Assembly (NCBI GenBank): GCA_951406725.2
Contig: OX597831.1
Coordinates: forward strand, 46,314,001-46,378,000
DNA length: 64,000 nucleotides
Source: Octopus vulgaris
Taxonomy: Eukaryota
Direction: 5' to 3'
The notes under the pieces are model-generated. The model had not been told where the DNA came from and searched no databases. It was given only the letters and a program-made list of their open reading frames with translations. Positions 1-62,166 of this stretch are shown here, piece after piece. Both the position numbers and the translations under genes were made by a program. Positions within the stretch are counted from its first letter, which is position 1. Each line of letters opens with the position of its first letter.

Positions 1-840
1 GCTTCGTATTTTCCAGTTGTGTTCTCTATTTATCATTTTAACTCCATCTCACAGGGGTAGGTGGTCTCCATTTTTCCATACATGATCAGCTATACCCGAT
101 TTATCAATATCTCCTCGTGTCACAGCTTTGCTATGTTTCTCTATCCCTACTTTGAAGGAGCGGCATGTTTCGCCCTTGTATAATCTACCACAGCTGCATG
201 GGATGGAGTACACGCAATCTTTGGTCATATTCTCTTCTGTTGAGTGTTTTACTCGAAGGAGATATTTGCGAAGTGTTGTATTACTCTTGAATACTGTCCT
301 GACGTCATATGGGCCACGTATCTTTTGTATCTTTTCGGAGAGGTCTTTCACATAGGGTAGACAGACTGTGAACAGTTTATTGGTTTCATTCTCTCTTTTC
401 ATAACTGGAGTGGATAATATGTTTTTGGGGTAGTTGTTGCTTAATAGATTGTTATTGAGCTTGATAATTTCTTCGTGGTGTATACGGACGTCCTGAATCC
501 ATACTTGGAAAGTTAGATGGTTTGAAAGACGAGCTAGTTTTTGTTGAAGTGTCCCTGTGTCTCCATTGAAATGTAATGTCGGCTCAGTTCTGCATTTTAG
601 AAATAAGGAATTATGTACATTATTTACATTATTTACTTTTGACGGGTATTTGTCCTCATCGTGTTTGTTGTTAACATAACGTTTCGGCTGGTTGGATTTT
701 AGGGCTTGTAAATCTAATATTTTCCTATCCTTCCTTAAAACCGATGAAGACTGGAGGGTATATCAGCCGAAACGTTACTTTAACAACATACAAGAAGTGG
801 AGAAATATCCGACATGTGTAAATAATGTAAATAATGTCAA
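1..840 (-). mobile_element. Penelope-like retroelement fragment (GIY-YIG endonuclease plus inverted pLTR pieces)
   Basis: ORF 49-402: LPYVKDLSEKI...VYSIPCSCGRLYKGETCR...H...IADH, the typical PLE GIY-YIG domain. Inverted repeat at ~615-689 / ~764-837. Confidence 0.88.
741..778 (+). ncRNA. Degenerate hammerhead ribozyme motif in PLE pLTR (also at ~19704, ~39951, ~61497)
   Basis: CCGATGA-A-GACTG...CAGCC-GAAACGTT. The core CUGAUGA is mutated to CCGAUGA and stems I/II are weakened, so it is probably inactive. Confidence 0.55.
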
Positions 841-1412: not shown

Positions 1413-4400
1413 ATAATAACACTGTTTTCTGCAGCTGCACTAAATGGGTTTTATGCCTGTTCCTCTCTCCATCTGTACAAATCTGTAGGTATAGTTTCTG
1501 TTGTACCTATAACTACTGGGATACATTTTACCCGCACTTTTCACAGTCTCTGTAATCTAACAGCTAGGTCCTGGAACTTTGTTATTTTTCTATACCTCTC
1601 ATATTTATTTTTTCATAACTTGGGACTATAAAGTCAATTAATTGGTACTGTCTACTACTTCTAAATTAGGCTTTCTCTTACTATGTCAGTCTGAATGTTG
1701 GCTCTAGGTTGACATGCCCGTTCCATATATTCTTTCTGTGCCAGCATAATACATTCACTTACTATATGAGTAACACATTCCTCTTTTGATTTGCATAACC
1801 TACATTGGGAATGCACTTAATTTTTGTCTGTTTTAGTTTTTTATCCAATTAATCCTTGATACTTGATCTTGTTCTGCTTCTAACAAACTTTCTGTCTCTC
1901 GTTTCAGCCGTCCTTTCTGCAACCATAACCATGTCACACTACAACTATTTGCTACAATCATCTTTGGGAATCTACCATGCAAAGCCTTCTCCTGCCAGTC
2001 TTTTGTTTGTTTTTCTGGCTTTTAACTTTGTTTGTTTTTTTGTTTTCCCTATGTCTTGCTGTGATTGAAGTAGCTCTCTAAACATTCTTTACTATTATCT
2101 ACGTAGGAGTCTATATCTACTCTAGCTAACTCCACACAGTCTTCTACTGATATTATCCCTCTTCCACTTCCTTTCTAGCCAAGTATAATCTTGCTACTCC
2201 TGTGTTGGATGGAGTCCTCCATTCATATTGAATTCATTCCCAATTCTTCCGTCTAACTTTGCTAATGTAGTTTTTGTCCAATCTACAAAAACTGCTGAGT
2301 ATATAAGTAAAGATACTATCCACGTATTTAAAGCCTTCACTAGTTTCGGACAATTTAGTTTTGATTTCATAAACTTCCTTATCCTTCTGATGTACTCCTT
2401 CTCAATTTTCGTTTCCGTTTCTATAGTTAGTACTCTGTCAGATCTAATACTCCTAGATACTTATAACTCTCTACTTCTCTCGGTGATTTTAATGTCTGGC
2501 CATCTCGTAATTGGATGCATTAGCTTTTGACTGCATGTCCCCTTTTCATGACAAATATTGCATACTTATCTATGCCAAATTCCATCCTATATCTTTGCTG
2601 AACAGTCTTGCTGTCTGTATTAAGGAATCTCTCTTATTCATTCTTAACAGGGTTCCGACAGTTATTCGTACTACTACCACCTTTTCCATCGACCACAATT
2701 GCTTAACCTCTCAAGTTAACCTGTCATATCTATCGACATTTTTCTTCCTTATCGTATACCTTGTTGTCAGCTGTGCATGCTATATCCAGCATCGTTTGCT
2801 TTCTTTCTCAATTAACACTTTGTCTAGTTTCCTACTCTCTATCTCATGGTTTAATGCTCGTACCACGTTTTTGCTCTGTTAAGTCCATACTTGTTGCAAA
2901 GCGTCCAATGGCATGCATTGACTAGTAATATGCCACAGGTTTCACCACTTTGTCTACAAAGTCTGCACTTATCACTATCCAATGTGTTGTGTATTCTGTA
3001 TTTGATGTAATTCGTTCTTGATGCTTGCTCTTCGACGGCACCGATTAGGGATTCTGTTTCCGGTTTTAAATCACTTTTAGTCATCCATAGCCATCTTTTT
3101 CTCTCTGTCTTATCATCAACATCCCTATGAAATTGTCCATGCATTCTTTCTTTGTCCACCTATTTTCAGTTTCATTCACTCTCAAAGTGCTTGTACAGTG
3201 CTTTATCTTTGCAATCTTCCATCCTACACAAGCCTGACCTTCTTACGTCCAATAATAGTGGTTCTGTGGCATATTTTACATAGCATGCTGTGCTGTTTTC
3301 CTCTGCTCTAATGCTGTGTTCGCATCAAATCAGTCCTCTTTCCCCTCCTTTTCGCGGTACATACAGTCTGTCTGTGTTACGTTTTGGATGGAGTATCCCA
3401 TATCTAGTCAGCAACTTCCTTGTCATTCTGTTTAAGCTGTTTAATTAGTCTACTGTCCATGCAATTACCTCTGCTCCATATCTAAGTAGTGAAACTGCCC
3501 AGGTGTTGATAGCTTCAATCTTATTCCGTACGTTTAATTTTAACTTAAGGATCAGTCTCAGTCTGCGCAAGTACTCCACTTTAAATCTTTCTGTCATTTC
3601 TTTCTCCATCAATTTATCCATTTCCAAAATCCCCAGGTACTTATAGCCCGTATCTTCTATCTGCTTCATAACCTCCCCCGACAGTATCGCTAGCTCGTCC
3701 ATACATTTGATTTTGCCTCTCTTCAAGACTAACGCACCATACTTTTTCAGTCCGAACTCCATTTTGATGTCAGCACTGAAAGTATACACCGTATCAACGA
3801 ACGAACTGACTTGGGATTCATCTTTACCATAAAGTTTGAGATCATCCATGAATAATAAGTGGTTGACATTTTCTTGGCGGCTTTTGAATACATACACAGC
3901 CTTTGCTTTCCTCAGAATCAGTGTTAGTGGTATCATGTACAGTACAAAGATCAGTGGTGACAGGCAGTTCCCTTTGAAGATGTCTTTCCTGATTTCTATT
4001 GTCCCTAAACTTCTTCCATTTGCTGTCAACTTCGTCCCCCAATTCGCCTTACTTTTTCCAAGTAATCGCTCAACATTCGATGCAATACCAAGTAGGTCCA
4101 TACGTTCCATAACCCAAGAATGTGCGATCATATCATACGCCTTATGATAATCGATCCATGACATGGCCATATTGCTACCGTATTGCCTTTATCGATGTTT
4201 TTCAAGCACAGCACTGTCCTACCCATTGTCAATCACTCTGGTGTTATTTAGCCGGCATGTAACAAGATGTTGAGTTGTGCAGCTATTCGTGCATGACATT
4301 CATCAAATCTTTTGATCCAGTAGCCTTGAATTCCATCTGAACAGTCTTGCAGTCCGTTTGCTCATTTTTTGTTGATTTCCTTCATTTCCCTAATAGAAAT

Positions 4401-5200: not shown

Positions 5201-6626
5201 ACGTTTTTTTTCTTATATAAACGCAGAGTTAGTAAAAATACATCGAAAAATGCAGATGAAATCAAAATGATGTTAAAACTATTTGCAACTTTAGTACATT
5301 TTTACGAGAGATAATGCTATTCAACGATTATTACTCTGTATGCAAGCACTAAGGACGTTCTCTGTTTTCCTTGATTCCTAAACTATCAACGTTCTATGAA
5401 GAAGTAAAATAAAGATTCTATATATTACTGCCAGATGGTAAATAATTTCATCTTTAATTTCAATTAATGACTCTCTTCGTGATATATCGATTTAATAAGT
5501 TATAGGTTATATCGTGCTGAAGGTTTCGAAAACAAATGAAATAGTGCTATACTTAATCAACACGCACTAGCAATTGGAAATATATCGCAATAGATAAAAG
5601 GAAATTGAATATGAGAGTTCTGTGAGTATACTTTCTTGTAGTTCTTAATTTTCAACCCTGCCTCACATCGCGAACGAATAGTTATTTTCCTTGCATTGAC
5701 GGCTATTCCGAGAGGAAACGTGTATTTGAACACGAATATACTAAATCTTAAAGAATTCATATTTCATCACAAAATGATGAATGAAACAAACAGAAAATAC
5801 GAAAACAGGTGGGTGAATAGAAGACTACAGGAAACTTAGACAAAACGGGACGGTGTGATCCGTATATATATGCAAGAATAATTAGTAAGAAGTTTTCGGA
5901 ATAAATTAGAAGACAGCCGCTGCAGTCCGTCAAAAATAGAAATGTGATGTGTTGTCAAGCCCACAAGGCCTCCAGGAACCATAAAATGTTCTTTAGTACT
6001 GGCAATACAGTTTTTGTGTTTCGTATCGTTCTTGATATTTAAACTTCATATGCGATGTCTTGCCTTGAAACCTACCAATTAGTCTTTCACCAAGCAATTC
6101 CCGCATAACTATTTGCTAATCTGGACACTGAAGGTTTCAAGTGCCGGGAAAGATACATTAGCATATTATTTTAATGACACTGTTGACAATACGTAGAATA
6201 AACAAATTAAAGTAATATATGATATAGGTCAAAGTAATGGTAATTTTGTAGCTAATTTAAATGAAATTTGTTATGAGAGAGACATAAAAAGGAGACAGAG
6301 AGGGAGATAAAGCAGGGAGAGAGGGAAAGAGAGGGGGAAAGAGGGAGAGAAAGACAGAGAGAGAGGAGAGAGAGAGAGGGACAGAGATAGAGAGGGAAGG
6401 ATAGACAGGGAAAGAGAGGGGGAGAGATAAAAGTCAACAGATAAAAGTCGACAGATAAAAGTCGACAGAGAATATGGGAGATGGAGAAAAAAAAAAAAGC
6501 ATAAGAAAATTTTCTGTCACTGAAACATATATGAGCTCTTTTCGTAAATTGACAAAAATACACATAATCATAATAGTTGAATGTGATGTTGATATTCAGA
6601 TGACATTCCTAAATGTTAGGTAAGAA

Positions 6627-6800
6627 ATCCTTTCTACGACAAGTACAAGGCCTGAAATGTTGAAAGAGGGAACTAGTCGATTACGTCGACCACCAGTGTT
6701 TCACTGGTACTTAATTTATCGACCTCGAAAGGATAAAAGGCAAAGTTGAACTCAGCGGAATTTGAACTCAGATTGTGCAGACGTACGCAATGCCGCTAAG
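6627..6800 (-). mobile_element. tRNA-derived SINE (copies ~24841-25015, ~46121-46295)
   Basis: The minus strand has a B-box-like GAGTTCAAATTCC followed by CTTTGCCTTTTATCCTTTCGAGGTCGATAAATTAAGTACCAG, which resembles a Nin/Deu-type domain. Confidence 0.7.
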
Positions 6801-7499
6801 TATTTTAGTTTGTTAGAAGTCTAACTGAATAAGTTTAGAATAGTATTTTAACAGAAAAATCATTTGGACCAATATAGCGTTTTTTTAATGCGGAATCGTC
6901 TAGGCAATTCTGAAGAGACTAGTGAAGAAGTTCCAAAATTCGGATAAACCTTACAAACTATTTGTATATCTGTAAGGAAACACAGAAAAAAAGGAAAAGT
7001 GAAAGGTTGCTATCAATGCCTTATATGGACTTAGGAGTATTTAGATGGACTTGAAATCCAAGTTGTCTAATCTCACAAGGTTTTGACTGTGATAGTGACA
7101 TTTAAATACAGCAATGGCAGTTGAAAAAACGCAACACAGTAAGAGTAGCAATTGATTTATATGCAGCGAATGTTAAATCTTGTGCCTAGTCCCTCAAACT
7201 GCTAGAAACAGAAAACAATTTTCTCTCATATAACATCCTAATTCAATAAAGAAAAGGTGGAATGGTTGTGAAGAGAGTGTCGTTGATCAGAGATTTGTTG
7301 GATTAGGACTGACCTGAGGATAAACTATATCTGATTTATATAATATCCCGAGTAAATGTGATTTGATAGATGTTTGAGTGGATAAAGTAGTGAGATATAT
7401 AATTATTAATGTTCTTTGATCTATGGAGCTCAACACCACCACCACCAACAATAGCAAAACATGCTAAAATTGACGAGGAGAGAGAGAGAGATAGAGATA

Positions 7500-7533
<34 letters not shown>

Positions 7534-9114
7534 AAGAGAACAATATATTAAGTTATGTTAGAAAAGATGGTTCAGGAAATACAACTCCTGAAAAAAAAAA
7601 AGAAAAGAGAGACAGCATGATCACTGGTGAATTGTTTTTGATGATGGATTTGTTGGATCAGCTTCGATTACGGAGCTAAGCAAGAAGAAAATCATTAATA
7701 TTATAAGCGTATACATACCACCAGCAGTACTAGTAGACGTTTCGTTACTCTTCTCATGAGAGACCCAACACATTTCGCAAGTAAATATAATTTTAATACG
7801 TCACACATCCTGTTACAATTAAAAGTTAATTAATCTAACTATATAGGGACACCAATATCTCTCATGAAGAAAGCTAACAACAATGTTATCAATGTATATC
7901 AATTAACCGAATTAATTTGCATAACTCTCTCTGCGCTCGCGAGAGAGAGAGAGAGAGAGAGCGCGTGCGTATGTGTTGTGCATGTTTGTAATGGCGATCA
8001 CATTATCTGACAGTGGCCATGATGCGGAATGTCAGGTGAAGCATAACCCTACACTTGTAAGATTCACACGTTACGAATCTTAGTCTAACTGTACCAAGTA
8101 CGTCTGCTGCGAGACTAAAAGACAAGAATCTCTATTTAAAGGAATACTTGACATGGGAGGAATTTCATCCGGTATTCCTGGTCTGCTACCACAACAGCTC
8201 CTTTATAGGATCCAGTTAGCTCAAGACATCATCAGGAGGAACCACGTTCGGTTTCGGCCCATACTCATCTACCGTTTTGACGTGGCGCCTTCCCCTTTCG
8301 GAGGTGTCTTCATTTCTGGTGTTGGGTGCATGTCTTCGTTCTTCTGTTCCCTAGCCTCTTCGATGTTGCGTCAACGAATATCAGCGGGCGACTGGCTGTC
8401 TTGTCAAATTTCCCTTTAAATACCTTCTGCTAGCCTCCAGTAGGCAGCCCCAGCAAGTTTTCACGTGACACTGTCTCAACTTTAACTGACCAATGAAGGC
8501 GCGTGGTGGACTAAATATTGGGTAAATAATTCCTTAATCTATCCACAAACAAGTAACAAAAGCTTTTCAATAGACATGTGCACTTTCCTGCGGGAATGAA
8601 CAAAACAGTACATCCTGGCTGTTTGAGGGAAAAGAACGAAAGCTACAACAATAAAAGGAAGCTTTTAGAGAAATGTAATCCCAACAGCTGATGATGAGGG
8701 TTGCATTTAGCAGAAAAACGACCTATCTTAAGCCTGGAATGTAGCTAACTGCCAAATCGTAGGTGTTTACATGGTGTTCACATGAACGGAAGTACATTCT
8801 ACAAAGCTACTTAAAGCATGTATAAAATAGTTGAGACGATTTCTTTCGCCTCTAATTTTTTTCGCAGTCGATCTTCTTCACAATCATTCACACATTTAAA
8901 TACTCTTGTCCTTCCTTCTGTTAATCTTGAATTCCTACATCTCTCTTCCCATTTCACTCTACATCTTTCTCTTTCTATACTCACAAAAATGCTCTTCTTT
9001 TTCAAACTGGATGGCCCTCCCTCAAGCAAGCGAAAGGATTCTTCGTACCTCAGTCACGTGATATCGCCCCTGCGCGAGTTTTTCATTAAATATAGCATTT
9101 TAAATTTTACTTAC

Positions 9115-11789: not shown

Positions 11790-13074
11790 GAGGGACGTTC
11801 AATAAGTAATGCCTCTGACCCACTTGCAGTTGTTTGATCTAGCTGCAATTTTGCATGTGCAATTAGTCTCTATAGAGTAAGTGGCAAATTACAGCTCTGA
11901 ATTAATTGTGGTTTCTGATTTACAGGTGTTTGAACCGAGTCAAGTGTGAAATGGAGCCTGTTGAGTGTCGAGCAGTGATCCGGTTTTTGTATTTGAAAGG
12001 ACGCACACCACGGGAGACTTTTGATGAAATGAAAGTAACTTATGGTGATGATGCCCCATCATATGACCTTGTAAAACGCTGGCATCGTGAATTCAAACAT
12101 GGTCGGAACTCTGTGGAAACAGCTCCCAGAGCTGGTCGCCCCCTTCTGCCATTGATGAGGCATCTGTCCGTCAAGTTGAGGCTGCCATTTTGGAAGATCG
12201 ACGCATAGTTATTCGCCAAATAGCCCATGAGGTCAAGATTAGTACCGGGTCTGTGGAAACTATCATTCATGACCATTTGCATATGCAAAAGGTGTCTGCC
12301 AGATGGATTCCCAGGTTGCTCACGCCTTTCCAGAAGCAAGAACGCGTCAAGTGCTCGAGGGTGAATTTGGAGATGTGCCAAGAAGATGAGTCAAAATTTT
12401 TCAAAAGACTGATTACACAGAATGAAACCTGGGTCCATCACGATGATCCAGAGACCAAATCCCAGTCAATGCAGTGGAAGCACCGTGACTCACCCCCTCC
12501 AAAGAAGGCAAGGGTGCAGCCCTCCGCTGGCAAGGTCATGCTCACAGTCTTCTGGGACCAGGACGGAGTAGTGATGACAGATTTCCTGGCAAAGGGTACC
12601 ACAATTGCAGGAGCCTATTATGCTTCACTTTTGAGGAAATTAAGAGAAGTTATCAAAATCAAGAGGCGGGGCAAGATCAGCAAAGGAATCCTCCTCCTGC
12701 AGGACAACGCTCCGGTCCACAACTCGCTACTCGCCAGATTAGTAGCACAGGCGTATGGCTATGAACTCCTCCCCATCCCCCCTACTTTCCTGACCTTGCA
12801 CCCTCTGATTTTCACCTCTTCCCAATCATGAAGTTGTTTTTGAAAGGAAAGCGTTTCCCAGATGATGCAGCCTTGATTTCTGAAGTGACGTTGAGGTTGG
12901 AGGACCAAGCTAGGTTCTTCTACAAAAACGGTCTCCAGAGCCGCATCAAACGATGGGAGAAATGCGTAACTCTGGGTGGTTCCTATGTAGAAAAAGACTA
13001 ATAACTGTGCCAAGTTTCGTTGCTCTACTCCTATGGGAAGTGGATCAGGGGCATTACTTATAGAACGCCCCTCG
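11789..13074 (+). mobile_element. Mariner (Tc1/mariner, DD34D-type) transposon, defective
   Basis: TIRs CGAGGGACGTTCAATAAGTAATGCCTCTGACCCACTT / AAGTGGATCAGGGGCATTACTTATAGAACGCCCCTCG with TA flanks, 1286 bp. Motifs WIPRLL, (D>N)ETW, QDNAPVH and out-of-frame HPPYFPDLAPSDF; frameshifted. Confidence 0.95.
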
Positions 13075-14029: not shown

Positions 14030-15560
<1,531 letters not shown>

Positions 15561-15734
15561 GAACGATATTTTTGTAGATATCAAAAATGACTTCAAAATG
15601 GCGCCGTTTTCGTCTCCGAGTCAAGAGAGGAGAGAGGAAGATGTTTTGAGGATGAAATCATCTTTGATAGCCAACGTTTTTGAAACAATTTTGCAGACTT
15701 TATTAAAAGTATTAGTAGCAGTATCAGTAGCAAT

Positions 15735-18211: not shown

Positions 18212-19294
18212 TCAATGAGTTTCGATATTTTGTCTTTTACATAGCTGGAAAATGTTGTGAAATAAAGAAAGTAATTCATTACGAAACTGCCGATTGAAAA
18301 CCCCGTAGATATACGGGTTAAGAGCAGAGCTGAGATAAGAAGAATAGAATAAAAACTTGTGAATCACTAGATCTTTATCACTTGCAACGTAATCAAAATC
18401 TTCAACAAACAACCTCCAGTATATTCCAATGAAATGTGGTATGTAACTGATAATCCAGATCAAGGTGATAACGAAGAGTATTAAAGTAGCCCAAGCTGGT
18501 GGCACTGGTTGCTTTCTAAGACGCGCAAAAGCGGTAGAACTAATATCTGTAGACTGACCTTCAGGTTTGGAAATGTTAGGAGTTGTGAAGGCTTCACGAA
18601 ACTGATTTGCTTTATTTTTCTTCGCTTTGTAAATTTTCCAAATGCGCATTCCAATTAATATGTATATAATGAAAAGAATGATAAACATACAGCAGCAAAC
18701 GGTTGATCCAGTAGTGTAATAAGCAAAAAAATTTATTGTGCCATTTATATAAGGAGAATATGCACAAACTCCTCCAATATCGCCACATTGTTCCACCATT
18801 TTGTTTTGTGTGCCGGATACAAAAATTGATGGTGCAGACAAAATGAACGCGATGATTGTTAAACATGCTAAAATTGTTTTTGAATTCTTAACGGAAATAC
18901 TTTGTTTAAGAGGTCGACATATGAGAATGTATCTATCGACTGCTATAACAAACACAATGAAAGCTGAATTGGTTATTGCTGCAACTGTCACAGAACGTAT
19001 CATACGACATGCAACATCACTGTGAAACGTATAGGGAAAACGTAGAACTACAATGTCCATAGGTATACATATTATGCAAGTTAGAAAATCACACACCGAG
19101 AGTGCTACAATGAACATATGCATGGCTGCCTCATCAAATTTATAATAGTATATGTATGATACAAAGCAATTTCCAATTGCTCCAAGTGCCATTGAAATTC
19201 CGAGATACGTTATCACTGGAAAATAAACATCCACCATTTTGGTATTTAGTTCTAAAATACTAACGCAAATGTTGACACTGTTGTTTTGCTCCAT
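18212..19294 (-). CDS. Class A (rhodopsin-like) GPCR, copy 1, 360 aa, peptide-receptor-like orphan
   Basis: Seven hydrophobic segments; TM1 GN, TM2 LSVCD, C3.25, DRY, TM6 ISYIP, TM7 NPYIY, helix 8 FRNEL; N-glycosylation sequon NNS; uninterrupted ORF. Confidence 0.95.
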   Translation of the reverse strand: MEQNNSVNICVSILELNTKMVDVYFPVITYLGISMALGAIGNCFVSYIYYYKFDEAAMHMFIVALSVCDFLTCIICIPMDIVVLRFPYTFHSDVACRMIRSVTVAAITNSAFIVFVIAVDRYILICRPLKQSISVKNSKTILACLTIIAFILSAPSIFVSGTQNKMVEQCGDIGGVCAYSPYINGTINFFAYYTTGSTVCCCMFIILFIIYILIGMRIWKIYKAKKNKANQFREAFTTPNISKPEGQSTDISSTAFARLRKQPVPPAWATLILFVITLIWIISYIPHFIGIYWRLFVEDFDYVASDKDLVIHKFLFYSSYLSSALNPYIYGVFNRQFRNELLSLFHNIFQLCKRQNIETH

Positions 19295-19359
19295 TTTCTT
19301 AATATTGTTTGAAACTTTGAGGAAAGTGTTATGATTTGCGATTGTAGACCTCGTACTTC

Positions 19360-19385
19360 CTGGAAAGACAAAGAAAAGTTGTTTG
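19360..19385 (-). promoter_or_regulatory. Splice acceptor 65 nt upstream of GPCR ATG (also 38736-38761, 60262-60287)
   Basis: aacttttctttgtctttccAG|GAAG polypyrimidine tract plus CAG, identical in all three copies. Confidence 0.75.
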
Positions 19386-19454
19386 TAAACAGTTTATTCC
19401 AACAGACTTTATGAAATATTCTGCTTTACATCGAGAGTTAAGTTAACAGATTTT

Positions 19455-19805
19455 ACAGTTCTATATTTAAGAGATGTGGAATTATGTACATTATTTACAT
19501 TTGACGGATATCAGTCAAAATAGCATAAGAAAACATTAGATTTATACGCCCTAAAATTCACTCCGTAATAACCCGCGGACATATGGCGTAGTTAACACAA
19601 CGTTTGGGCTGATATACCTCATTGTGTTTGTTGTTAACATAACGTTTCGGCTGGTTGGATTTTGGGGCTTGTAAATCTACTATTTTCCTATCCTTCCTTA
19701 AACCCGATGAAGACTGGAGGGTATATCAGCCGAAACGTTACGTTAACAACATACAAGAAGAGGAGAAATATCCGACATGTGTAAATAATGTAAATAATGT
19801 CAACA
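19455..19805. mobile_element. Penelope remnant (pLTR pieces only; ~0.9 kb body deleted)
   Basis: The left pLTR piece is joined directly to the right piece at GATATA-CCTC-ATTG, compared with the full versions at 38820-40050 and 60350-61600. Confidence 0.8.
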
Positions 19806-37587: not shown

Positions 37588-38670
37588 TCAATGAGTTTCG
37601 ATATTTTGTTTTTTACATAGCTGGAAAATGTTGTGAAATAAAGCAAGTAATTCATTACGAAACTGCCGATTGAAAACTCCGTAGATATACGGGTTAAGAG
37701 CAGAGCTGAGATAAGAAGAATAGAATAAAAACTTGTGAATCACTAGATCTTTATCACTTGCAACGTAATCAAAATCTTCAACAAACAACCTCCAGTATAC
37801 TCCAATGAAATGTGGTATGTAACTGATAATCCAGATCAAGGTGATAACGAAGAGTATTAAACTAGCCCAAAGTGGTGGCACTGGTTGCTTTCTAAGACGC
37901 GCAAAAGCGGTAGAACTAATATCTGTAGACTGACCTTCAGGTTTGGAAATGTTAGGAGTTGTGAAGGCTTCACGAAACTGATTTGCTTTATTTTTCTTCG
38001 CTTTGTAAATTTTCCAAATGCGCATTCCAATTAATATGTATATAATGAAAAGAATGATAAACATACAACAGCAAACGGTTGATCCAGTAGTGTAATAAGC
38101 AAAAAAATTTATTGTGCCATTTATATCAGGAGAATATGCACAAACTCCTCCAATATCGCCACATTGTTCCACCATTTTGTGTTGTGTGCCGGATACAAAA
38201 ATTGATGGTGCAGACAAAATGAACGCGATGATTGTTAAACATGCTAAAATTGTTTTTGAATTCTTAACGGAAATACTTTGCTTAAGAGGTCGACATATGA
38301 GAATGTATCTATCGACTGCTATAACAAACACAATTAAAGCTGAATTGATTATTGCTGCAGCTATCACACCACGTATCACACGACATGCAACATCACTGTG
38401 AAACGTATAGGGAAAACGTAGAACTACAATGTCCATAGGTATACATATTATGCAAGTTAGAAAATCACACACCGAGAGTGCTACAATGAACATATGCATG
38501 GCTGTCTCATCAAATTTATAATAGTATATGTATGATACAAAGCAATTTCCAATTGCTCCAAGTGCCATTGAAATTCCGAGATACGTTATCACTGGAAAAT
38601 AAACATCCACCATTTTAGTATTTAGTTCTAAAATACTAACGCAAATGTTGACACTGTTGTTTTGCTCCAT
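37588..38670 (-). CDS. Class A GPCR, copy 2, 360 aa
   Basis: Intact ORF; 14 aa differences from copy 1; same motifs; AATAAA ~130 nt past the stop (forward TTTATT ~37452). Confidence 0.95.
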   Translation of the reverse strand: MEQNNSVNICVSILELNTKMVDVYFPVITYLGISMALGAIGNCFVSYIYYYKFDETAMHMFIVALSVCDFLTCIICIPMDIVVLRFPYTFHSDVACRVIRGVIAAAIINSALIVFVIAVDRYILICRPLKQSISVKNSKTILACLTIIAFILSAPSIFVSGTQHKMVEQCGDIGGVCAYSPDINGTINFFAYYTTGSTVCCCMFIILFIIYILIGMRIWKIYKAKKNKANQFREAFTTPNISKPEGQSTDISSTAFARLRKQPVPPLWASLILFVITLIWIISYIPHFIGVYWRLFVEDFDYVASDKDLVIHKFLFYSSYLSSALNPYIYGVFNRQFRNELLALFHNIFQLCKKQNIETH

Positions 38671-38819
38671 TTTCTTAATATTGTTTGAAACTTTGAGGAA
38701 AGTGTTATGATTTGCGATTGTAGACCTCGTACTTCCTGGAAAGACAAAGAAAAGTTGTTTGTAAACAGTTTATTCCAACAGACTTTATGAAATATTCTGC
38801 TTTACATCGAGAGTTAAGT

Positions 38820-40050
38820 TAAAAGATTTTACAGTTCTATATTTAAGAGATGTGGAATTATGTACATTATTTACATGTGACGGATATCAGTCAAGATAGC
38901 ATAAGAAAACATTAGATTTATAAGCCCTAAAATTCACTCCATAATTACCCGCGGACATATGGCGTAGTTAACACAACGTTTCGGCTGATATACCATGCAG
39001 CCTTCATCAGGTGTCTTGGGGAAATTTTGATGTTATTATTATTATTCAGGTCACTGTCCGAACTCGGAATCTTGGGGTTAGTAGCCCGCACTCTTATCCA
39101 CTACGCCATATGACTGTGGGCAATTATGGAGTGAATTTTAGGGCTTCTAAATCTAATATTTTCTTATGCTATTCATATCTGCACTCTGTCTGCTTAGGAG
39201 ATAGTTGTGTCCTAGCATATGTGCTGCTTCGTATTTTCCAGATGTGTTCTCTGTCTATCATTTTAACTTCATCCCACAGGGGTAGGTGGTCTCCATTTTT
39301 CCATACATGATCAGCTATACCCGAGTTATCAATATCTCCTCGTGTCACAGCTTTGCTATGTTTCTCTATCCCTACTTTGAAGGAGCGGCATGTATCGCCC
39401 TTGTATAATCTACCACAGCTGCATGGGATGGAGTACACGCAATCTTTGGTCATATTCTCTTCTGTTGAGTGTTTTTCTCGAAGGAGATATTTGCGAAGTG
39501 TTGTATTACTCTTGAATACTGTCCTGACGTCATATGGGCTACATATCTTTTGTATCTTTTCGGAGAGGTCTTTCACATAGGGTAGACAGACTGTGAACAG
39601 TTTATTGGTTTCATTCTCTCTTTTCATAACTGGAGTGGATAATATGTTTTTGGGGTAGTTGTTACTTAATAGATTGTTATTGAGCTTGATAATTTCTTCG
39701 TGGTGTATACGGACGTCCTGAATCCATACTTGGAAAGTTAGATGGTTTGAAAGACGAGCTAGTTTTTGTTGAAGTGTCCCTGTGTCTCCATTGAAATGTA
39801 ATGTCGGCTCAGTTCTACATTTTAGAAATAAGGAATTATGTACATTATTTACATTATTTACTTTTGACGGGTATTTGTTGTTAACATAACGTTTCGGCTG
39901 GTTGGATTTTAGGGCTTGTAAATCTAATATGTTCCTATCCTTCCTTAAAACCGATGAAGACTGGAGGGTATATCAGCCGAAACGTTACGTTAACAACATA
40001 CAAGAAGAGGAGAAATATCCGACAAATGTAAATAATGTAAATAATGTCAA
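38820..40050 (-). mobile_element. Penelope-like element (GIY-YIG, pLTR with tRNA-like head and hammerhead)
   Basis: ORF 39169-39627 GIY-YIG; ~73 bp inverted repeat 38896-38968 / 39100-39172. Confidence 0.88.
38971..39014 (-). ncRNA. Minimal type I hammerhead ribozyme
   Basis: ACAC-CUGAUGA-A-GGCUG-(10 nt)-CAGCC-GAAA-CGU-U-GUGU. Intact core, stem I ACAC/GUGU, stem II GGCUG/CAGCC and palindromic minimal stem III (ACGU), as described for PLE hammerheads. Confidence 0.8.
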
Positions 40051-59111: not shown

Positions 59112-60196
59112 TCAATGAGTTTCGATATTATGTTTTTTTTACATTGCTGGAAAATGTTGTGAAATAAAGCAAGTAATTCATTCCGAAACTGCCGATTGAA
59201 AACCCGTAGATATACGGGTTAAGAGCAGAGCTGAGATAAGAAGAATAGAATAAAAACTTGTGAATCACTAGATCTTTATCACTTGCAACGTCATCAAAAT
59301 CTTCAACAAACAACCTCCAGTATACTCCAATGAAATGTGGTATGTAACTGATAATCCAGATCAAGGTGATAACGAAGAGTTTTAAAGTAGCCCAAGCTGG
59401 TGGCACTGGTTCCCTTCTAAGACGCGCAAAAGCGGTAGAACTAATATCTGTAGACTGACCTTCAGGTTTGGAAATGTTAGGAGTTGTGAAGGCTTCACGA
59501 AACTGATTTGCTTTATTTTTCTTCGCTTTGTAAATTTTCCAAATGCGCATTCCAATTAATATGTATATAATGAAAAGAATGATAAACATACAACAGCAAA
59601 CGGTTGATGCAGCAGTGTAATAAGGAAAAAAATTATTGTGCCATTTATATAAGGAGAAAATGCACAAATCCTCCAATATCGCCACATTGTTCCACCATTT
59701 TGTTTTGTGTGCCGGATACAAAAAATGCTGGTGCAGACAAAATGAACGCGATGATTGTTAAACATGCTAAAATTGTTTTTGAATTCTTAACGGAAATATT
59801 TTGCTTAAGGGGTCGACATATGAGAATGTATCTATCGACTGCTATAACAAACACAATGAAAGCTGAATTGATTATTGCTGCAGCTATCACACCACGTATC
59901 ACACGACATGCAACATCACTGTGAAATGTATAGGGAAAACGTAGAACTACAATGTCCATAGGTATACATATTATGCAAGTTAGAAAATCACACACCGAGA
60001 GTGCTATAATGAACATATGCATGGCTGTCTCATCAAATTTATAATAGTATATGTATGATACAAAGCAATTTCCAATTGCTCCAAGTGCCATTGAAATTCC
60101 GAGATACGTTATCACTGGAAAATAAACATCCACCATTTTAGTATTTAGTTCTTCTAAAATAATAACGCAAATGTTGACACTGTTGTTTTGCTCCAT
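59112..60196 (-). pseudogene. Class A GPCR, copy 3, frameshifted (pseudogene or sequencing error)
   Basis: Full-length homolog with 1-bp deletions near 59668, 59633 and 59203 and a +2 in a T-run near 59135; also a 3-bp insertion near the N-terminus. Confidence 0.75.
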
Positions 60197-60496
60197 TTTC
60201 TTAATATTGTTTGAAACTTTGAGGAAAGTGTTATGATTTGCGATTGTAGACCTCGTACTTCCTGGAAAGACAAAGAAAAGTTGTTTGTAAACAGTTTATT
60301 CCAACAGACTTTATGAAAAATTCTGCTTTACATCGAGAGTTAAGTTAACAGATTTTACAGTTCTATATTTAAGAGATGTGGAATTATGTACATTATTTAC
60401 ATTTGACGGATATCAGTCAAGATAGCATAAGAAAACATTAGATTTATAAGCCCTAAAATTCACTCCATAATTACCCGCGGACATATGGCGTAGTTA

Positions 60497-60540
60497 ACAC
60501 AACATTTCGGCTGATATACCCTCCAGCCTTCATCAGGTGT
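60497..60540 (-). ncRNA. Minimal type I hammerhead ribozyme (stem III variant)
   Basis: ACAC-CUGAUGA-A-GGCUGG-(8 nt)-UCAGCC-GAAA-UGU-U-GUGU. Confidence 0.7.
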
Positions 60541-60574
60541 CTCGGGGAAATTTCGATGTTATTATTATTATCCA

Positions 60575-60646
60575 GGTCACTGTCTGGAGTCGAACTCGGA
60601 ATCTTGGGGTTAGTAGCCCGCACACTTATCCACTACGCCATATGCC
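60575..60646 (-). other. tRNA-like Pol III promoter segment inside the PLE terminal repeat (6-nt deleted copy at ~39049-39113)
   Basis: GGCATATGGCGTAGTGGATAAG...GGG-CTACTAA-CCC...GAGTTCGACTCC: A box, anticodon-like hairpin and B box. Confidence 0.65.
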
Positions 60647-62166
60647 TGTGGGCAATTATTTAGTGAATTTTAGGGCTTATAAATCTAATATTTTCTTATG
60701 CTATTCATATCTGCACTCGGTCTGCTTAGGAGATTGTTGTGTCCTAGCATATGTGCTGCTTCGTATTTTCCAGATGTGTTCTCTGTCTATCATTTTAACT
60801 TCATCCCACAGGGGTAGGTGGTCTCCATTTTTCCATACATGATCAGCTATACCCGATTTATCAAAATCTCCTCGTGTCACAGCTTTGCTATGTTTCTCTA
60901 TCCCTACTTTGAAGGAGCAGCATGTTTCGCCCTTATATAATCTGCCACAGCTGCATGGGATGGAGTACACGCAATGTTTGGTCATATCTCTTCTGTTGAG
61001 TGTTTTACTCGAAGGAGATATTTGCGAAGTGTTGTATTACTCTTGAATACTGTCCTGACGTCATATGGGCCACATATCTTTTGTATCTTTTCGGAGAGGT
61101 CTTTCACATAGGGTAGACAGACTGTGAACAGTTTATTGGTTTCATTCTCTCTTTTCATAACTGGAGTGGATAATATGTTTTTGGGGTAGTTGTTGCTTAA
61201 TAGATTGTTATTGAGCTTGATAATTTCTTCGTGGTGTATACGGACGTCCTGAATCCATACTTGGAAAGTTAGATGGTTTGAAAGACGAGCTAGTTTTTGT
61301 TGAAGTGTCCCTGTGTCTCCATTGAAATGTAATGTCGGCTCAGTTCTACATTTTAGAAATAAGGAATTATGTACATTATTTACATTATTTACTTTTGACG
61401 GGTATTTGTCCTCATCGTGTTTGTTGTTAACATAACGTTTCGGCTGGTTGGATTTTGGGGCTTGTAAATCTACTATTTTCCTATCCTTCCTTAAAACCGA
61501 TGAAGACTGGAGGGTATATCAGCCGAAACGTTACGTTAACAACATACAAGAAGAGGAGAAATATCCGACATGTGTAAATAATGTAAATAATGTCAACAAA
61601 GATTTGTACAAAAACAAGAAATACATTTATCAAATATTAATTACGCATGATATTTATGAACGAATATTTGTGAATATACACTGTGAAATTGCTAAATTTT
61701 CGATATCAATCATATATTGGGAAGAGCTAGTGAATAAGCCATATAAGTATGTGCTTCTGTGTATGTGTGTGCTCGTTGTTAATGGTTGAATCCGAAGAAC
61801 ATTAAGCAGTAAATAATAGAATTATGGTTAAAAATACCATTTGGAAGGATGAATTCTATTCTTGGGTCTCGAACCTACACGTGTTAAAAATATGATAGAC
61901 GTTCTGCCATTGGACCAAAATAATCTTTCAAATTTCTCCATCCATTTTCGATACTTTGTTCTTATAAGTGAGAACTGCATATTGGTGAGATTTCGTGTGA
62001 AATAATTCGTTTTTAATGGTTAAAGCCGAAGTAGATAAAGTTATATGTAATAGCATCTAAATATTGGCTTAAGAAAGACTTTGGGGAGAAAAAGCCGAAT
62101 GTATGTATGTATGTATGCATGTATGTATGTATGTATGTATGTATGTATGTATGTATGTATGTATGT

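Follow-up and report, generated by a model that had tools for sequence, protein, structure and literature searches.

A coding Penelope-like element of Octopus vulgaris with a tRNA-derived head and a minimal hammerhead in its terminal repeat

Described relatives and points of comparison

The terminal repeats (pLTRs) of described Penelope/Poseidon elements contain the first codons of the ORF, a hammerhead and an optional tail (PMC3846280, PMC11167929, PMC8557442), and the 5' ends of other Penelope pLTRs are likewise well defined, with palindromes and motifs of Pol II type (PMC3846280); here and below, comparisons refer to the accessible sections of the reports cited. In the anole element the ribozyme depends on the element's protein, and in vitro insertion can do without the ribozyme (PMC11167929). 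Little is known about the transcription of Penelope elements or the site at which their RNA starts. Pol III promoters derived from small RNAs have been captured by the terminal repeats of the TRIMp3 elements Helenus, Ajax and Cassandra, an arrangement proposed to have arisen by SINE insertion, and the autonomous partners of these elements have been argued to need Pol II (PMC10886601).

The octopus element described here resembles the anole element PAc (PMC11167929) and the rotifer element Pen2a (PMC3846280) in its ORF of about 840 codons with reverse transcriptase (RT) and C-terminal GIY-YIG domains, in a pLTR of about 200–270 bp that includes the first codons, in a hammerhead overlapping the ORF start, in two 3' ends that correspond to the optional tail, in inverted upstream pLTRs and in a palindrome at the pLTR 5' end. 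Unlike theirs, its pLTR begins with a tRNA-Arg-like head with A and B boxes, followed by (AAT)n, and not with TATA/Inr-like motifs; set beside them, this Penelope-like element (PLE) is also free of runs of four T (T4) in its sense strand. Like the TRIMp3 elements it has a terminal repeat with a captured promoter of small-RNA origin, but those are non-autonomous LTR elements with PBS and PPT, whereas the octopus head lies in the repeat of a coding PLE itself (PMC10886601). The schistosome repeats SM-alpha and Sj-alpha share with it a short unit in which a Pol III-type promoter precedes a type I hammerhead; they are, however, non-coding, often tandem and equipped with an active canonical hammerhead, while in the octopus a coding element supplies the unit as its pLTR, and the copies are uncut at the ribozyme site (PMC6765202). 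Metazoan non-LTR retrozymes are likewise short and pLTR-related, carry a type I hammerhead and depend on PLE protein, but they are defined by head-to-tail arrays and circular RNAs, and no such arrays were seen among the octopus copies (PMC7761336; bioRxiv 10.64898/2026.07.22.740005). The ribozyme itself is ordinary, sharing with the minimal hammerheads of metazoan PLEs the type I core, the extra nucleotide between 9 and 10.1, the G10.1–C11.1 pair, the palindromic 15.2/16.2, the absence of helix III and a 5-bp stem I (PMC4209133).

Thus the PLE architecture and the ribozyme are known, and the tRNA-type head at the pLTR start of a coding PLE is, as far as we have searched, new. Literature searches, whose scope stopped short of the repeat databases Repbase and Dfam and of subscription journals, returned no paper on a tRNA-headed pLTR, and the accessible part of an octopus repeat annotation (PMC13282606) mentions no such element.

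The window insertion and its duplicated surroundings

The window, by which we mean the whole stretch of 64,000 nt that was analysed, is an array of tandem segmental duplication units of about 20 kb, 96–98 % identical to one another, around a GPCR gene. A search of the contig (G000:C18) showed that five units retain the cassette of head and hammerhead, and at least seven units were counted by means of an embedded LINE fragment, at about 46.24–46.40 Mb. The repeat at 39 and 60 kb is therefore a single insertion multiplied together with its surroundings; the second cassette that the initial annotation had listed at 60422–60704 does exist, but as part of the next duplication unit it is not independent evidence. 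The insertion in the window is dead and rearranged, and its multiplication along with the GPCR gene came later (Table 1).

Table 1. Parts of the Penelope-like insertion in the window and its copies in other duplication units
Feature	Position	Strand	Remarks
pLTR 5' start: 7-nt leader and tRNA-derived head	39049..39122	−	head from 39115
A box, Pol III type 2 promoter element	39098..39108	−	assigned by consensus
B box	39055..39065	−	assigned by consensus; broken by 6-nt deletion in the 39-kb copy
(AAT)n/(AAC) run, 5' UTR	39032..39046	−	(AAT)4 at 39035–39046
Minimal type I hammerhead	38970..39015	−	predicted cut between 38975 and 38974
Second arm of the inverted repeat	38896..38968	+	locus-specific inverted copy of 39100–39172
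pLTR 3' end with optional tail of about 26 nt	38824..38887	−	
PLE ORF 3' part (RT thumb, GIY-YIG endonuclease) and short 3' UTR	39123..39733	−	
Partial upstream pLTR (+156 onward) into ORF start	39732..39900	−	
Upstream junction	39903..40045	+	inverted partial pLTR (hammerhead 3' part and tail), 39953–40045; short sense piece of ORF end, 39903–39953
Same PLE insertion, next duplication unit	60350..61591	−	A box 60630–60640; intact B box from 60597; hammerhead 60496–60541, C15.2→T
Same insertion, another duplication unit	19448..19798	−	ORF and head deleted
Same insertion, further unit	3..835	−	clipped by window start; cassette in locus L003

The pLTR start boundary given in the table is the one at which most genomic copies begin, and the length of the (AAT)n run varies greatly among copies. 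Of the A/B-box segment reported for the 39-kb copy, the A box stands and the B box does not, owing to its deletion, though it is intact at 60 kb; we take these segments to be A and B boxes by the consensus of such boxes. In both window cassettes the stretch separating the AAT run from the hammerhead is about 29 nt short, the start codon of the family being among the missing bases. A Penelope GIY-YIG ORF does precede the cassette, as had been claimed, but it is a remnant in which the ORF start is joined to the thumb/GIY-YIG end by an internal deletion of about 1.5 kb; the surviving ORF end is itself damaged by deletion, and no Pfam domains were found in the remnant.

The inverted repeat of 73 nt (arms 38896–38968 and 39100–39172, six mismatches), which the initial annotation saw as enclosing the cassette, is present at the locus but is not a part of the element. 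Its upstream arm is made up of the ORF end and 3' UTR together with the beginning of the head; the downstream arm is an inverted copy of these that has been placed between the hammerhead and the tail. Such an enclosing repeat is absent from all 140 other copies, and it is a local rearrangement. An inverted piece of the family lies upstream in 86 of the 140, which is the usual head-to-head Penelope junction.

Each unit also contains a rhodopsin-family GPCR with a single-exon ORF on the minus strand (18212–19393, 37588–38769 and 59128–60295) of 360 codons (7tm_1, E 1e-25, Pfam), frameshifted in the copy at 59–60 kb. At 38738–38887, the end of the PLE insertion lies about 70 nt upstream of a pyrimidine-rich site resembling a splice acceptor before the GPCR coding exon, in the same orientation, so that the predicted hammerhead would fall on the sense strand of the intron or upstream region of each GPCR copy. 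At window positions 2000–4200, 11900–12830 and 14700–15600, and their repeats, decayed fragments of non-LTR RT (RVT_1, E 2.7e-12) recur in every unit, as do long (AAT)n arrays and what we take to be the remnant of a mariner-like transposase.

Family structure, hammerhead and short copies

The cassette as a query gave 2009 candidates. Exact matches number 134 for a 32-mer from the head and 848 for a 46-mer from the hammerhead, and the reversed controls have none; since none of 78 unselected copies matched the hammerhead 46-mer exactly, the copies with a hammerhead number roughly more than 18 000, a figure to be read as a rough lower bound. Exact-match anchors favour well-preserved copies. In what follows, signed positions take the first A-box base as their reference, and locus L073, a duplicate of L072, is dropped from the counts of 69.

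The majority consensus is a unit of 2658 nt with one ORF of 835 codons encoding RT and then a GIY-YIG-type domain, whose motif is visible near the C-terminus. The order of the unit is head, (AAT)n, start codon at +99, hammerhead (inside ORF codons ~10–25), tail, the rest of the RT/GIY-YIG ORF, stop codon and next head. The 3' ends of copies cluster at +228 and at +253/254, which corresponds to an optional tail. RVT_1 of Pfam was found above the cut-off in L124 (E 2.4e-10) and below it in L121 (E 2.7e-6), neighbours in a protein atlas scored 0.96–0.97, with GIY-YIG in 47 % of the members of one cluster, and a sequence search of the PDB gave weak RT matches alone (best E 0.014). Among 30 long copies, six carry sense pieces of the pLTR ahead of the ORF. 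The element is, then, an EN+ Penelope-like element of Penelope/Poseidon type, with an RT and C-terminal GIY-YIG ORF and the pLTR features of that group, in which pLTRs stem from partial tandems and come with inverted copies upstream and an optional tail of 30–40 bp. The linker that joins RT to EN in L121 showed no Cys cluster that would form an extra Zn-finger, the absence of which is a criterion for the clade (PMC8557442). No complete head–ORF–head copy was found, the longest running from +68 (L372), and none of 12 low-scoring RT matches represented a head-less sister family, all belonging to the same family at 74–94 % identity.

The head is a trait of this family and not of one locus. Among copies found through their protein, 33 of 41 carry it about 25–30 nt past the stop codon; it is therefore no one-off insertion of a SINE, the circumstance under which the idea of a Penelope pLTR with a captured tRNA-type head would have fallen, and that idea stands. 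The family head matches a genomic tRNA-Arg(TCG) at 49 of 73 positions, the closest match among 30 genomic tRNAs (z 7.5 relative to shuffled sequences), and retains the consensus of both boxes while the cloverleaf is lost. In individual copies each box is retained in only 18 of 33, as is to be expected of decayed copies. A functional tRNA gene was ruled out, as neither ARAGORN nor Rfam recognizes a cloverleaf: ARAGORN called no tRNA in the window or in any of 29 head-bearing loci, and together with the Rfam check (window and 501 nt of L015) it echoed neither the tRNA nor the hammerhead assignment of the initial annotation. Among 70 head-anchored copies, none was seen to be a free SINE that joins this head to a different body. 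Another SINE-like repeat with a tRNA head lies beside family copies at L018:1170–1400 and L030:2231–2450; it is probably not the donor of the head, because its own head only moderately resembles that of the pLTR.

The structure of the minimal type I hammerhead on the minus strand was correctly recognized from the outset: stems I and II are each 5 bp long, the core is intact and the triplet is GUU. Stems I and II make up the lowest-energy fold given by RNAfold, and the motif has the CUGANGA/GAAA/NUH core, the extra nucleotide after A9, G10.1–C11.1 and palindromic 15.2–16.2. There is no stem covariation within the family. The comparison spans only three families: the two others differ from this one at both partners of stem II pairs 2–4, one of them also at both partners of stem I, and the single copy of the third hammerhead family is without stem I. 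A pattern designed to exclude the family gave 18 matches, these two other families among them, against 5 for its control. The sole common non-CpG variant within the family falls at the free position N7 (16 of 61 copies), which is weak evidence because it is probably a single event. By analogy with the motif of PMC4209133, the octopus hammerhead probably needs a dimer or protein. A second repeat family with a hammerhead (L329–L358, e.g. L330:1500–1700; 1422 candidates) is about 190 nt long and T-rich, has (TA)n/(CA)n flanks and a stem II of 4 bp, and lacks a tRNA head; 30 of its loci yielded no ORF related to this PLE.

A large population of short copies that lack the ORF and start at the head is present in the head-anchored set; the initial annotation had proposed that such a Penelope could yield short self-cleaving RNAs like those of SINEs or retrozymes. 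Such copies could form a separate family, made by Pol III, trimmed or circularized by the hammerhead and borrowing the Penelope protein; most head-bearing copies are of this kind, repeats combining a SINE with a hammerhead are known in schistosomes (PMC6765202), and retrozymes derive from pLTRs (bioRxiv 10.64898/2026.07.22.740005). However, ends no more than 8 nt from the predicted cut (+168) occur in just 2 of 69 copies, and 42 of 69 end at +214 or later, at least 46 nt beyond it; the templates must therefore have been mostly uncut, in agreement with the anole element, whose ribozyme needs protein and is dispensable for insertion in vitro (accessible text of PMC11167929). Short and ORF-bearing copies are, moreover, equally divergent (5.3–6.2 %) and share their alleles, with none diagnostic of either, and the head itself is part of the coding element. 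From the shared alleles and age, and the extension past the cut, we conclude that the short copies are best taken as solo pLTRs; a separate SINE or retrozyme is very improbable, and self-cleaved RNAs cannot be upheld as the template. Most copies open with a head that is related to tRNA and bears A and B boxes, a feature of SINE2, and repeat annotators would probably misfile the short ones as tRNA-SINEs; as a non-autonomous family distinct from its partner, with which it has just the 3' tail in common, SINE2 was ruled out, given that the head belongs to the coding element in 33 of 41 copies and that divergence and alleles are shared. A non-LTR retrozyme was also ruled out: the copies are scattered singly or paired head to head (an inverted piece lies upstream in 86 of 140) and do not form head-to-tail units, and all but 2 of 69 end away from the cut.

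The 5' boundary and possible transcription by RNA polymerase III

The 5' end of this element's RNA is preserved in tens of thousands of copies, and the recorded end falls on a tRNA-type promoter. Of the 69 head-anchored copies, 58 start no more than 14 nt upstream of the A box, four at −15 to −45 and seven further away; fold-backs account for part of the starts assigned to −14, and starts assigned to −9 correspond to −7 on account of two wildcard loop positions. In an independent set of 70 hammerhead-anchored copies, 23 reach the head and 20 of these stop within the next 30 nt. The rate of stops is 6.5 per 100 nt past the head, 0.68 inside it and 0.13 further upstream, an excess of about tenfold over the inside of the head (P 4e-10). 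The boundary coincides with the position at which transcription from a type 2 Pol III promoter is expected to start. Of 30 copies picked by the ORF start, three reach the head; two of these start at −15 and −9 and extend 430 and 595 nt into the unit, and the third continues into an upstream unit. RNA starting at the head therefore continues into the coding sequence.

Our preferred reading, to which we give a probability of about 0.6, is that the cassette is the pLTR of a high-copy coding element of Penelope/Poseidon type, and that its tRNA-derived head is likely to be an internal Pol III promoter; on sequence grounds the element may be a coding retroelement read by RNA polymerase III. Transcription would start about 13–14 nt upstream of the A box, likely by Pol III, and the RNA would pass uncut through the hammerhead into the ORF. 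Uncapped Pol III RNA is a poor mRNA; read-through by Pol II could supply the mRNA for the protein and Pol III the templates. The protein would nick AT-rich DNA and reverse transcription would begin internally at +228 or +254, by analogy with the anole Poseidon element, for which such nicking and an internal start have been described in vitro (PMC11167929). A start in the 5'-most repeat would yield a solo pLTR of about 240–270 nt resembling a SINE, a start in the 3' repeat would yield long, mostly 5'-truncated copies, and template switches would add inverted pieces. It is tempting to go further and suppose that this one promoter has flooded the genome with SINE-like solo pLTRs, the element acting as its own SINE, an extension that we consider rather doubtful.

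The main rival is that the head is a passive fossil of a tRNA or SINE and that the boundary arises, as in other Penelope elements, from a Pol II start or from self-priming at a palindrome. A small palindrome does lie at −14 to −3, and 23 of the 58 short copies fold back there; rotifer pLTRs, too, combine 5' palindromes with TATA/Inr motifs (PMC3846280). The remaining 35 of the 58, however, end at the palindrome without a fold-back, against 11 copies that go further, and the palindrome forms a weak hairpin. A passive fossil also sits poorly with the retention of both boxes after loss of the cloverleaf and with a boundary that matches the established type 2 Pol III start, and we regard it as unlikely. 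A different role for the head would be that of a processing signal, at which RNase P cuts read-through RNA at tRNA +1 and so forms the template's 5' end. Some copies do start at tRNA +1 (−7 from the A box), but in many the family sequence persists as far as −10 to −14, including where the junction to flanking DNA is clean, and bases retained beyond tRNA +1 argue against such cutting; given in addition the broken acceptor and T stems and the absence of any ARAGORN call in the 29 head-bearing loci, this is the least probable of the alternatives.

The composition of the element is a second point of contact with the preferred Pol III promoter. Its sense consensus has no TTTT run in 2658 nt and 31 runs of four A, where 4.6–4.7 T4 runs would be expected from shuffles (P about 0.01) and 2.9 from synonymous-codon shuffles (P 0.02–0.03), a point also against the fossil. 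The consensus of a control LINE is likewise under its null, with two T4 runs in 2228 nt, which the fossil reading would accommodate, and the direct difference between the two is not significant (P 0.21); data on the T runs of the anole element were sought in three supplement files and not found there, leaving the comparison with no outside PLE control. The second hammerhead family, which has no head, is rich in T runs. The absence of T4 is thus suggestive only as a sign of Pol III compatibility.

Three RNA-seq runs placed 6126–8746 reads on one family copy, equally on both strands, and 77–81 % of the reads run on into unrelated sequence, which together point to read-through of copies inserted in host transcripts. 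Depth rises about fourfold at the head, with fold-back joints at the same boundary, and no pile-up of RNA ends was found anywhere in the three runs, including the hammerhead cut site, such libraries rarely showing cut ends. The boundary signal in RNA repeats that in DNA and neither supports nor opposes Pol III RNA or cleavage; that read-through is all the runs give is what a passive fossil would predict. Contigs of four further runs, recorded under four organism codes, cover all 30 bins of the 3' region, head included, at depths that cannot rank its parts.

If Pol III does make the template, the element would be a Penelope counterpart of Cassandra and Helenus within a coding element and would offer a route from a pLTR to a SINE-like repeat, and the role of the hammerhead could be tested in an RNA without a cap. 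Should the mRNA come from Pol III as well, the rule of Pol II use by autonomous retroelements would be broken.

Of the 69 head-anchored copies, 19 end at or before the AAT run and, where inspected, pass into unique DNA, which suggests priming at that run. Several observations concern the same stretch. Of 59 copies at risk, 22 end in the 14-nt AAT zone. In L066:1250–1750, two back-to-back heads each end in (AAT)n, with no hammerhead and with an apparent 9-bp target-site duplication. In L101, L104, L110, L111, L113 and L118, truncated copies of the family are fused, by way of the AAT run, with (AAT)n 3' tails that belong to other retroelements.
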